Assembly (NCBI GenBank): GCA_951406725.2
Contig: OX597837.1
Span: 2,232,001-2,296,000, forward strand
DNA from: Octopus vulgaris
Lineage: Eukaryota
DNA: 64,000 nucleotides
Direction of reading: 5' to 3'
The notes below the pieces were generated by a model. The model searched no databases and was not told where the DNA came from. It worked only from the letters and a program-made list of their open reading frames with translations. This document shows positions 19,640 to 55,257 of the stretch, in pieces. The number at the start of each line of letters is the position of its first letter. Positions within the stretch are counted from its first letter, which is position 1. A program made the translations under genes and the position numbers.

Positions 19640-19850
19640 TAGGAAATTTCAGTTGTAATTAACTCTAGCAGCTAGGGTTCTGAGATTGGTACTTGAGTGT
19701 TGAATGTCTTCCACAGTAATTAACAACCAATTATCAAAGATTATTATGAGCGGAAAGTGTCGCTGTGAGACCTTTGACGACAGGCTGTTGTCCGCTCTCA
19801 CAGAATCAACCAGACCAAACAAAAGCGAGCGCTCTGAGAAGTAAAACAAC
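19640..19850 (+). mobile_element. R4/Dong-type LINE extreme 3' fragment
   Basis: 19669-19714 matches 38420-38465 at 39/46 nt (ARVLRLVLEC* versus ARILRLIFGC*); runs into AAC/AAT repeats. Confidence 0.65.
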
Positions 19851-19908
19851 AAACGCAACAACAACAGCAACAATAATAATAATGATGTTGATGATGAGGA
19901 TGATGATG

Positions 19909-19980
<72 letters not shown>

Positions 19981-21154
19981 GGACTGGATGTTAAAACTTG
20001 TCTCAAAACACCTACTTTAAAAACTCTGAGGACTGGATGTTTAAAACTTGTCTCAAAACATGAAAACAAGAAAGCATCATACTCAGTAACAAAACAGGCA
20101 AAGGAATATCTAAGTGAATTCCGAATACAACAAATTTCGGAATTAGACATAGAAGAAACAAGCACAGAAAAAGCTAAGCGCATGAAAACCTGTGCTAAAA
20201 TTGCTGCCTTAGATATTCTGAAAACTTCTCAATGGCAAATACCGAAAGAGAGCGAATAATGCAGATGTTGACAAAGCCCTGACCCATCAATGGCTAATAG
20301 CCTCTGGCTTAAAATCTGAAACAGAAGGGTTTATCATAGCAGCTCAAGATCAATACCTACCTACAAGGAATTACCAGGCCAACATATTAAAGAACGACAG
20401 TAGCCCAACATGTCGTGTATGTCAACAACAAAATGAAACCATTGATCATGTTGTCTCTAAGTGCAGTCTTCTTGTGCCTACAGAGTATCTCAACAGGCAT
20501 TATAGAGCTGCACAATATATTCACTGGGTAATTTGCAAAAGCCTGGACTTGCCCCATGATAAAGACTGGTGGGAACACAAACCACCTCCAGTGCTTGAAA
20601 ATGACCACATCTCACTCCTCTTGAGCTTCACCATTCAAACTGACCGAAAGATAGATGCGAATAGGCCAGACACCATAGTAAAAGACTTCAGACAAAAAAA
20701 CATGCCTCCTCATTGATATGACTATCCCAATCGATATAAACGTATCTGTCAAGACCTACCAGGAACTGAGCAAATATAAAGATCTTGAAATAGAAATCAG
20801 AAAAATGTGGAACCTGAAAACTAAAACAATACCTGTTGTCATAGGTGCCCTGGGAATGATAGCAATAGGGGCTGATTGCTACATAACTCAGATACCAGGA
20901 AACCCCAAAATGGCAGAAATTCAAAAGATAGTGCTCATATCCTACGCAAAATACTTTCTATGTAATCTCAAGTTTTAAAACAAACAATTTTCGTATGTTT
21001 TTTATTTAGACATTCCCTAGTACAACACTAAGTACAAAACCAAATATATGGCACCCTAGGCATAACACCAACATGAACTTCCAACTTGCTGTCTCTTGAG
21101 GTCTCTGGGTGAGACTTGGAGCCAGCTTGTGCAAATGTAAAGCAAAAGTCAAAC

Positions 21155-25204: not shown

Positions 25205-25853
25205 ACTTTTTTTTTCTTCTTTCAAATTTGCTTCCATTTCTTGCCGAGTGTCTTCCCGACTCCTAGGGCAAAGAAACTCATAGTATACATTGGTAGGCCA
25301 TTAAACCAAACTCAATAGTTCGTTCATTTTTTTTAATTTTTTTTTAAGTTAAATTAAAATACATGAGCAGCAACAGTTCTCACATCGACAATGCTCTTCT
25401 CAATACGTGTGATGTACCAGTTAAGACAATCTTTTGCACTTCTTGCAGGGATGGTAAGCCAGGGATCATTCTCATATAATTTTCGGTTCCCTTCTTGATC
25501 ATTCCTAGTGCTCCTACGATCAATGGTATTGTAACCGCCTTGAGATGCCACATTTTCTCAATTTCAATGAGCAGGTCTTTATATTTTCTGAGCTTGTCAA
25601 ACTCTTTCCCTGAGATATTATGATCACAGGGGATGCTCATGTCGATCAATAAGCAAACTTTATTGTTTTGGTCTTTCACAACAATATCTGGTTTATTGGC
25701 CTTGATGGTTCGGTCTGTATGTACTGGAAAGTCCCACAGTTACAGCCTCAGGGTGGTGATTATACCACTTGTCGGCAGTTTTGATATTGTAATGCCGACT
25801 TATTAGCCAGTGGAGATATTGGCCAACTCTGTCATGTCTTAATTTATACTCCA
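25205..25853 (-). mobile_element. R4/Dong-clade LINE 3' fragment (restriction-like endonuclease)
   Basis: ORF 25380-25679 VCLLIDMSIPCD..KYKDLLIEIEKMW..PLIVGALG..QKIVLTGTSHVLRRAL is homologous to the 20718-20978 ORF; upstream WDFPVHTDRTIKANKPD; bounded by (TTA)n at 25854-25992 and near 25181. Confidence 0.9.
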
Positions 25854-53315: not shown

Positions 53316-53479
53316 CTCTAGAGGGATGCTAGCATCCTTGTTCTCTGGTTTATACCAGTGTTCAGCGAAAACTAAATATATTAGTTTTGCATTGATATAT
53401 ATGTGCTTCTGTGTGTGGGGGAGGTAGGTATTTAACTACTTATGAATGAGAAAAGGAAGGAAAAAGAGAAACTGACATG

Positions 53480-53747
53480 CACGCAGACATCAGTTTATTC
53501 AAAGATACTCAAATCCGTATAATAAAATTCCTGTCCTACAGCCGTTTCCATATCCAATTAGTTCAATTGCAGAATTAAATTAAATCAATTTAATTTAAAC
53601 TTTCATTTGAAACTGGTTAATTAGGTATTTCATCGGGGGAGAATTTTCCCAAAAGCGAGTTACATTTGAACGAGTTGGTTGACCTACGACAGACTCAGAT
53701 GCGCGCGCTTTAGAATGTGTGCGTTGTTTAAAAAAACCGTTACTTTC

Positions 53748-53789
<42 letters not shown>

Positions 53790-55223
53790 ATATATATATA
53801 TAGATGGATAGAGAGAGAGATAGAGAGAGAGAGGGAGAGAGAGAGAGAGAAGGAGAAGGTGGTAACATTCATCAAGTATCAAGTAGTTGTGTATGTGGTT
53901 GTTAAAAATATTGAAGACAACGAAAAAATATGACGCATCAAAACTGCTGGTTAATTTCCATATAATAATGTAGAAGAAACTTTTACCCTCAGATATCACT
54001 TTACATCTGTAAACAACATTATTTTGTCTACAACTATTTTTAAGTTAACATTTGCTTCTGACCTTGCAATCACAAAAATTAGTACTCCTATTATTACCCT
54101 GTTTATTATCATTACATTCAGCATAATTGCTATTTGCCATTTTATCTACATTCAATAGGCTGGGATGGGATTTGACATAGGTTGTTGCCCCTTGTACACT
54201 AGACGTCTCAAATTTACTTTCAGTACTAACGTTTATTCCATTACTACTACTGTTATGGCGTTTACTACTATTAGAAATTATTATAAAAATTAGATAATTT
54301 TCTTTCGTTAATTGAAGATATAATCTCGCATAAATTATTAGATACGAAATAACTCGTTGTAAGAAGCCTAGGGTTAATAATATCATAATATCTATTTTCC
54401 TTTGTAAAGTGTTTAGAGAAAAGTTTGTATAAAGTTCCAACCAAATTACCTTTAATTTATTTAGCGAATGGAACAATGAACCAAACAATGTCGTTTTTTT
54501 TACCAGAAGATGCATTATAATTTTCAAATTTTCGAGCATTATTGAATATACAAGGGGTTTTTTTTATCATGTTATTCGTATTTCTGATTGTATGAGGACG
54601 ATTAGCAGAACGAAGATATACATTGATCTTCATATTTTATAAATCCTTTTCCACATTTCGACATCTAACCTTACCTACCCAATGCTCATTCCTACTCCTA
54701 AGTATTTGTTTTAAATCATTGTTAATATAGGAAACAATCTTTGTTGTTGGAGGTGCTGACGCCCATATTTTTAGGATAATATTTCAATTTTTGTTTGTAT
54801 CCAGCTTTACTAAGTGCCATATTAAAAGAATCGGCAAAATATATATAATAGGCCGTCAAAAATATCCTTATTAGACGATAAATTAGAAATTCTTTTAGAA
54901 ATATTATAAAGTAAAAAGTCTTTTACAGAACCACGACCATTACTTTCGTCATTTATATACTTACGATTGGAGTGAGGCTTGCTGTATGGTTAATATTTAC
55001 CTGTGATGAGACTAAGATTAACATCAAGGAAGTTCACAAATTCATGTTTGTTTTCTATTGTTATAGAGAATCCAAAACTTTAAAAATTTGTAAAATTTCT
55101 TCTTACATAGTTCTTTTTTCCATTAAACAGGTTACTAATGGTAAAAAGAGCATCGTCCTTATATATTTTTATCTTAGGAAGGGATTTTCCTGAACTTGCA
55201 GGAGTTCTATATAAAACGATGCT

Positions 55224-55227
<4 letters not shown>
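53480..55227 (-). mobile_element. Decayed, 5'-truncated Penelope-like retroelement (Neptune-like architecture: RT, thumb, Cys-rich linker, GIY-YIG start, terminal HHR)
   Basis: Minus-strand fragments across frames: KIYKDDAL (YKDD at 55152-55163); FVNFLDVNLSLITGKY*PYSKP..YINDESN; NISKRISNLSSNKDIF..FNMALSKAGYKQKLKY; KNDIVWFIVPF..KLFSKHF..ISSINERKL; CDCKVRSKC*LKNSCRQNNVVYRCKV..FFYI. Confidence 0.88.
53534..53640 (-). ncRNA. HHR motif (CCGAUGA core variant) with long AT-rich stem II, at the 3' end of the PLE
   Basis: Minus strand CC-CCGATGA-A-ATACCTAATTA...AAATTAAAT-TG-ATTTAATTT...TAATTGGATAT-G-GAAA-CGGCTG-TA-GG. Confidence 0.65.

Positions 55228-55249
<22 letters not shown>

Positions 55250-55257
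<8 letters not shown>

Follow-up and report, generated by a model that had tools for sequence, protein, structure and literature searches.

A probable decayed Hydra-clade Penelope-like retrotransposon in Octopus vulgaris with a predicted hammerhead of long stem II

Do a broken reverse transcriptase (RT) ORF and a hammerhead-like motif downstream of it, both on the minus strand of a 64-kb stretch of Octopus vulgaris DNA (i.e., the whole stretch analyzed, here called the window), belong to one retroelement, and if so, to which kind? A sequence-only reading of the window had proposed a Penelope-like element (PLE) with RT and GIY-YIG domains. Our results indicate that region 53403-55227 is probably a decayed, 5'-truncated copy of a multicopy Hydra-clade PLE, with a predicted 3' type I hammerhead whose 81-nt AT-rich stem II is common to its paralogues (Table 1).

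Table 1. Features of the element copy and its flanks (positions in the window)
Feature	Positions	Strand	Basis
RT core, motif C (YKDD) via FLDV to thumb; 5'-truncated, with stops and frameshifts	54764-55163	-	profile (iE 1.2e-28), alignments
Asn-rich insert, thumb to IVWF motif	54526-54763	-	alignments, octopus relatives
Conserved IVWF..PF...KHF domain	54277-54525	-	profile (iE 6.2e-13), tblastn
CxCx5C linker and first half of GIY-YIG endonuclease (VVY..FFYI), without internal CC pair of CCHH	53967-54152	-	profile (iE 1.1e-7)
Likely endonuclease remainder after internal deletion (IIWKL...ILDECYH)	53859-53966	-	paralogue continuations; local alignments (p 0.06-0.98)
Mixed (TA)/(TG)/(GA) microsatellite between ORF and 3' region	53738-53864		sequence
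3' untranslated region upstream of hammerhead, multicopy	53648-53745	-	11-20 contigs per run share other letters at 53673, 53702, and 53704
Predicted type I hammerhead	53524-53647	-	pattern, constrained fold, paralogues
Stem I	5' arm 53647-53637, 3' arm 53536-53524	-	predicted
Core CCGATGA (U4C); GAAA	53636-53630; 53548-53545	-	pattern
Stem II region, 81 nt, 21% G+C	53629-53549	-	pattern
Stem III, ACGGCTGT, 8-nt palindrome; predicted cut after 53537	53545-53538	-	pattern
Element 3' tail, seen in paralogues as far as 53439 or beyond; likely ends at short (TA) run near 53395-53402	53403-53523	-	paralogue contigs, sequence
Inverted 5' segment, 64 nt: RT just upstream of and including YKDD, reads YIFILGRDFPELAGVLYK	55164-55227	+	frame scores, paralogue joints
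(TA)n microsatellite, 5' junction; target type reported for Hydra elements in PMC8557442	55228-55256		sequence

The decayed ORF runs from 55163 to 53859 on the minus strand and is spread over three frames. All of the motifs said to be recoverable only by switching frames were found there: YKDD (55163-55152), FLDV (55031-55020), the thumb motif NMALSKAGY in a second frame (about 54830-54764), IVWF..PF in a third (54489-54466), VVY (54017-54009), and FFYI (53978-53967). Frameshift-aware alignment, a check suggested along with that claim, gave 3 to 4 frameshifts and 2 to 11 stops against three relatives, depending on the query; the larger counts fall within the Asn-rich insert, where the frame is not fixed. 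In a full HMMER search, the RT piece (with X at its two stops) matched 1214 of 1.84 billion representatives at an E value of <=1e-3 (best, 2.9e-23) and is thus not a chance resemblance. A profile of 18 relatives matched the window three times in colinear order (iE values of 1.2e-28, 6.2e-13, and 1.1e-7). Two word-index protein searches with pieces of the window gave no match, and Pfam returned no family for four window pieces or for eight long relatives.

Paralogues were sought by comparing contigs of four public runs with the window at 80% likeness (367, 423, 353, and 311 contigs). Most paralogue contigs were <95% alike. They covered both the ORF side and the hammerhead side in all four runs, with the greatest depth at the 3' end, as a retroelement prone to 5' truncation would be expected to show. 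Three of the four runs contain this very locus (one is perhaps the source sample) and are therefore not independent of it. Two stops of the window copy (54045-47 and 54990-92) are sense codons in paralogues. A selenocysteine reading of the linker stop was rejected, since this codon is TAA and 10 to 11 paralogue contigs per run carry another letter. With its ORF broken, the window copy is dead.

The proposal of a PLE with an RT and a GIY-YIG domain was borne out by the matches, which run colinearly from YKDD to YI with full-length relatives, as in EN+ PLEs; in the window copy this stretch is broken. Frameshift-aware alignments and the profile place the endonuclease 3' of the RT. This order rules out Naiad and Chlamys elements, whose endonuclease is N terminal. 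Neptune and Nematis elements were also rejected, as neither their CX2-5CxxC linker nor their CCHH motif was found in the window copy. In the description of the Hydra clade in PMC8557442, the traits are RWK, DKT for DKG, a CxCx5C in place of the CX2-5CxxC linker, no CCHH, CxxC and CxH around the conserved E and N of the endonuclease, insertion into (TA)n, and a 3' hammerhead reported as universal. Hydra-clade elements with 3' hammerheads and (TA)n targets were previously reported from Octopus (Craig et al. 2021, PMC8557442).

The window copy contains a CxCx5C linker (CDCKVRSKC, 54074-54048, minus strand) and a GIY-YIG core with a single cysteine between VVY and FFYI, i.e., no internal pair; in the alignment, the relatives also lack the pair. 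CYH at 53867-53859 fits CxH, and a clear CxxC was not seen in this part, where matches are nonsignificant. Tracts of (TA)n lie at 55228-55256 and, as a short run, near 53395-53402. The region of RWK and DKT was lost through 5' truncation; both motifs occur in P0029, P0058, and P0073, full-length relatives from its subclade. Among the best 150 matches, 23 relatives were at least 350 aa long and showed CxCx5C in 13 cases, DK[TS] in 13, RW[KRH] in 10, Cx2-5CxxC in 1, and DKG in 1, many of the 23 being fragments without the region tested. These features of the relatives, with the CxCx5C linker of the window copy, place the element in the Hydra clade.

Close named matches were proteins of Octopus bimaculoides, O. 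sinensis, O. vulgaris, and Argonauta; of 30 matches looked up, those with names comprised four Octopus, two Argonauta, and one sea cucumber protein. The window grouped with octopus proteins in a 22-row set (SH-aLRT, 94) of a quick tree with 144 rows (7 short rows dropped), which had no outgroup from other PLE clades and no named Hydra references; no starred node contains the window row. Four remnants of this lineage (P0004, P0005, P0141, and P0032) carry NCBI labels of Octopus and Argonauta host genes, i.e., "GATA zinc finger domain-containing protein 14-like" or "DDB_G...-like." The Asn-rich insert is also seen in the named octopus relatives P0004 and P0005.

Relative to the Hydra clade as characterized in PMC8557442, the window element is alike in its C-terminal GIY-YIG, CxCx5C linker, missing internal CC pair, (TA)n flanks, predicted type I hammerhead at the 3' end, and 5' truncation with an inverted segment, whereas its 81-nt stem II region, the Asn-rich insert after the thumb, and its 8-nt fully palindromic stem III set it apart. 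Hydra-1_Obim of O. bimaculoides, from the same source, shares its clade and host genus. At the thumb motif ISKRIS..SSNKDIFD, 15 of 16 residues are alike, and the stem II foot is similar, likeness to published Hydra sequences being judged by eye only; however, Hydra-1_Obim has a short thumb-to-IVWF linker, a 7-bp stem II capped by an 8-nt loop, and a different stem III. The window stem III motif had no match in the supplement text of PMC8557442, in which line breaks could hide one. The window copy represents a second, unlisted octopus Hydra-type family, distinct from the published Hydra-1_Obim.

The copy was altered beyond its frameshifts. At 53968, six contigs of one run go on to a complete YIG motif where the window continues with IIWKL, and its endonuclease is therefore likely internally deleted. 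The stretch after FFYI, down to CYH at 53859, had no significant match to relatives in local alignments (p, 0.06 to 0.98); paralogues cover 53896-53957. The span first given for the element (53480-55227) was kept with changes at both ends. Its 3' bound falls short, with paralogues aligning to at least 53439 (39 to 53 contigs per run at 53508 and 53517, 12 to 22 at 53460, and 2 to 5 at 53439), and positions 55164-55227 are RT sequence on the opposite strand. In that segment, which duplicates about 20 nt of the main copy, the plus-strand frame scored 31 to 44 against six relatives and the other five frames scored 15 to 31. An opposite-strand joint (55163/55209) in three runs and a loose end at 55166 in six contigs indicate paralogues without this inversion. 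These joints and the frame scores rule out a chance repeat as the source of the 5' hairpin and support an inversion; inverted 5' segments are an ordinary arrangement for PLEs.

The hammerhead pattern claimed downstream on the same strand was found with the parts named (a CCGATGA core, an AT-rich stem II put at about 80 nt, and stem III), the stem II region measuring 81 nt. The core starts about 225 nt past the likely ORF end and deviates from CUGANGA (CCGAUGA); the GAAA and a GUA triplet are present. Folded alone, the stem II region reaches -12.6 kcal/mol (z, -2.5), a stability matched by 8 of 500 shuffles. The constrained hammerhead fold (-15.7 kcal/mol, versus -24.3 kcal/mol for the free fold) is not the lowest-energy fold; it contains stem III and a 10-bp stem I interrupted by an internal loop and leaves the base of stem II unpaired. 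Stem III pairs with a second copy at -9.7 kcal/mol. The U4C change was found to lower hammerhead activity in vitro considerably (in PMC3088659), and the hammerhead of the window copy is likely weak or inactive.

The length of stem II was compared with that in 17 control loci of Hydra type. Ten held a full hammerhead pattern, 88 to 223 nt past the protein match, with stem II regions of 11 to 31 nt under a pattern that allowed about 140. In another (L001), a 13-nt stem II region follows an open Hydra-type ORF and is cut by the contig end; it has the same A.G pair at the stem II foot as the window hammerhead. The remaining six had no hammerhead, five being short of downstream DNA and one match ending mid-ORF. 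Two of the 17, metagenome loci from a close-alignment scan, had no complete hammerhead in view; none of 13 pattern matches in viral contigs was confirmed. In 26 Hydra rows tabulated in PMC8557442, the stem II region is at most about 26 nt by our count. The window stem II is about three times longer than those of the relatives compared and, given the 10 control loci and the 26 rows, an outlier. Control loci L003 to L017, among which are the ten with a full hammerhead, were found in contigs of genomes that carry bacterial species names, most of them titled metagenome-assembled; these contigs are likely animal host DNA in the bins.

The long insert is not peculiar to the window copy. Paralogues enter the same AT-rich pentamer repeats at 53568/53574 (7 to 13 contigs per listed loose end, all four runs) and from the other side at 53607 (12 contigs, one run). 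Since paralogous contigs of all four runs carry it, the insert is a family trait. A short stem II with the core kept was not seen among the joints listed (15 of 110, plus 9 with inserted letters). Of 808 paralogue differences, the 40 listed do not include core letter 53635, and a canonical CUGA was not seen in paralogues. The proposed PLE lineage of long-stem-II hammerheads thus holds for this family, in which paralogues share the trait, but not for the wider set, as 10 of 10 other Hydra-type loci are short.

A stem II of this length in a PLE hammerhead, from octopus or otherwise, did not come up in the literature searched; Repbase or Dfam may already list the family. The metazoan PLE type I hammerheads treated by Cervera and de la Pena (2014, PMC4209133) resemble that of the window in their small palindromic helix III, predicted dimer cleavage, and an extra base at the 5' foot of stem II, but their "larger than usual" helix II has 7 to 8 bp. 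Core halves far apart also occur in PLE-X1 of Selaginella (about 53 nt in PLE-X1_sMoe, counted from the table) and in "HHR_half_core" Naiads (35 to 50 nt apart; two from cephalopods), as given in PMC8557442. Unlike the window element, these belong to other clades and have shorter spacing, and the passages on the Naiads propose no fold.

From what is known of the family, the ancestral ORF would have produced an RT/GIY-YIG protein that nicks a (TA)n tract and copies its RNA by target-primed reverse transcription. Copying of the window element may have stopped inside the RT core, with a second priming or a template switch leaving the 64-nt inverted 5' piece. Because its 8-nt stem III is self-complementary, the hammerhead would be expected to cleave chiefly when two tandem copies pair as a dimer and to trim read-through transcripts, as PMC4209133 suggests for such ribozymes. 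The long stem II likely originated in the master element, through AT-rich pentamer repeats that expanded within loop II and were tolerated thereafter. Alternatively, this expansion and core changes may already have killed the ribozyme of the master element, the family spreading without cleavage. This is a serious rival, because cleavage was dispensable for insertion of an Anolis PLE in vitro (hammerhead mutants had no effect in the experiments reported in PMC11167929), and we regard it as possible but less likely than not. The U4C change, the 8.6 kcal/mol by which the window hammerhead fold lies above the free fold, and several paralogues with deletions starting in the hairpin are consistent with a vestigial ribozyme. 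However, the 3' arm of stem I pairs better in paralogues than in the window copy, and paralogue loose ends retain GAAAC in two of three runs shown and a self-complementary stem III in one. This support is soft, as the consensus ends agree only at 0.73 to 0.88.

The sequence-only reading had taken this family, or its type, to be the likely autonomous partner of an element at 5.8-8.0 kb of the window, within one long-stem-II lineage. The inverted 389-bp arms of that element (5969-6357 and 7611-7999) are 100% identical and hence young. They hold a well-formed hammerhead with a canonical core at 7681 (+) and 6287 (-), a predicted cut after 7784, an 85-nt stem II region (z, -6.1; 46% G+C), and an 8-nt palindromic stem III. 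Judged by sequence, this hammerhead is cleaner than that at 53524-53647 and the better candidate for a cleavage test. The parallel drawn between the two holds for stem II length (81 to 85 nt, with unrelated sequences) but not for stem make-up (21% versus 46% G+C). Both are type I hammerheads with an 8-nt palindromic stem III, both elements abut (TA)n, and a 10-nt word near the 3' ends is common to the arm (5975-5995) and to paralogue consensus ends near 53483; this word is too short to count as homology. The partnership was nevertheless not upheld and is quite unlikely. The only other shared word, 15 nt and AT rich (E, 0.33), sits at different structural places, and no Hydra protein remnant was found in the 5.8-8.0 kb element (profile; best iE, 8.2). 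Nonautonomous partners described in a preprint (10.64898/2026.07.22.740005) are homologous to the pLTR, and the listed paralogue pieces differ from the window copy by about 7 to 19%, in contrast to the young arms. As inverted 5'-truncated copies are ordinary in PLEs, the 5.8-8.0 kb element may be the 3' end of another PLE.

Whether the Hydra-type ORF and the hammerhead at 53524-53647 form one element depends on the stretch between them. The 127-nt microsatellite there is a preferred target, and the ORF remnant and the hammerhead could have inserted independently into a single (TA)n tract, in which case the hammerhead would come from the 3' end of a different PLE family. No contig among those listed spans the repeat (53738-53864) colinearly, and paralogue cover falls to single-copy level at 53834-53895. 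However, the repeat was skipped in the contig comparison, and reads cut near it would lower the cover there. The two parts lie on the same strand, at a spacing that fits 10 control loci, and a CxH-like C terminus directly precedes the repeat. Each side is found in multiple copies in all four runs. An inversion in one contig, recovered from three runs, connects 53647 with 54254 on opposite strands. Together with strand, spacing, and the multicopy cover shared by the two sides, this contig argues indirectly for ORF and hammerhead in one element, and we consider two insertions very unlikely.

The hammerhead motif alone is not rare: a loose pattern, written after the motif had been seen, gave 4 hits in the real window versus 0.47 per shuffled window (100 shuffles). 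Its placement is rare: by arithmetic from these shuffles, about 0.0015 hits would be expected within the 400 nt that follow the ORF on its own strand. Rfam gave no hammerhead among its 2 matches in 53450-53730 or among the 150 best of 309 window-wide. A chance pattern in AT-rich sequence, which this background rate, the noncanonical core, and the Rfam result would allow, is highly improbable given a position that agrees with the hammerheads of 10 control loci and a stem I that pairs over 10 bp and pairs better still in paralogues. The pattern very likely belongs to this PLE.

At 35731-35790 (+) of the window, a hammerhead-like core occurs with stem III and a stem II region of 30 nt; the end of another repeat, presumably an octopus SINE, seems to take the place of the 5' arm of stem I. 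At 19516-19136 (-), a weak Hydra-endonuclease-like remnant (iE, 0.04) followed by a loose hammerhead-pattern hit with long spacing (19269-19136) is possibly a very old 3' fragment or a chance match. ORF remnants at 32866-34531 (-), 19750-20716, and 25380-25739 resemble non-LTR retrotransposons (RT motifs YADD and KAFD). A long near-perfect hairpin at 9756-9934, likely a foldback element, has the window's best Rfam score, far below the family threshold.

The element class, the host group, and the 3' hammerhead are already published; new are the unlisted octopus Hydra-type family with its long-stem-II geometry, the 5' inverted RT piece, and the apparent endonuclease deletion. With two unrelated hammerheads of this long-stem form within 64 kb, the form may be common in this genome. 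It is conceivable, although we think it unlikely, that cephalopod PLEs repeatedly evolved working hammerheads with stem II of 80 to 85 nt (the AT-rich Hydra family and the unrelated, GC-richer 5.8-8.0 kb element). The hairpin would then be a functional module, e.g., a handle for an element protein or for dimer assembly, and some PLE families scored as hammerhead-less or half-core would carry such a hammerhead missed by descriptor surveys. The geometry was missed by Rfam, and short-stem descriptors would likely miss it too. Should the family consensus cleave, stem II of natural animal PLE hammerheads would span a wider range, and one could readily test whether dimer cleavage depends on the length of helix II.
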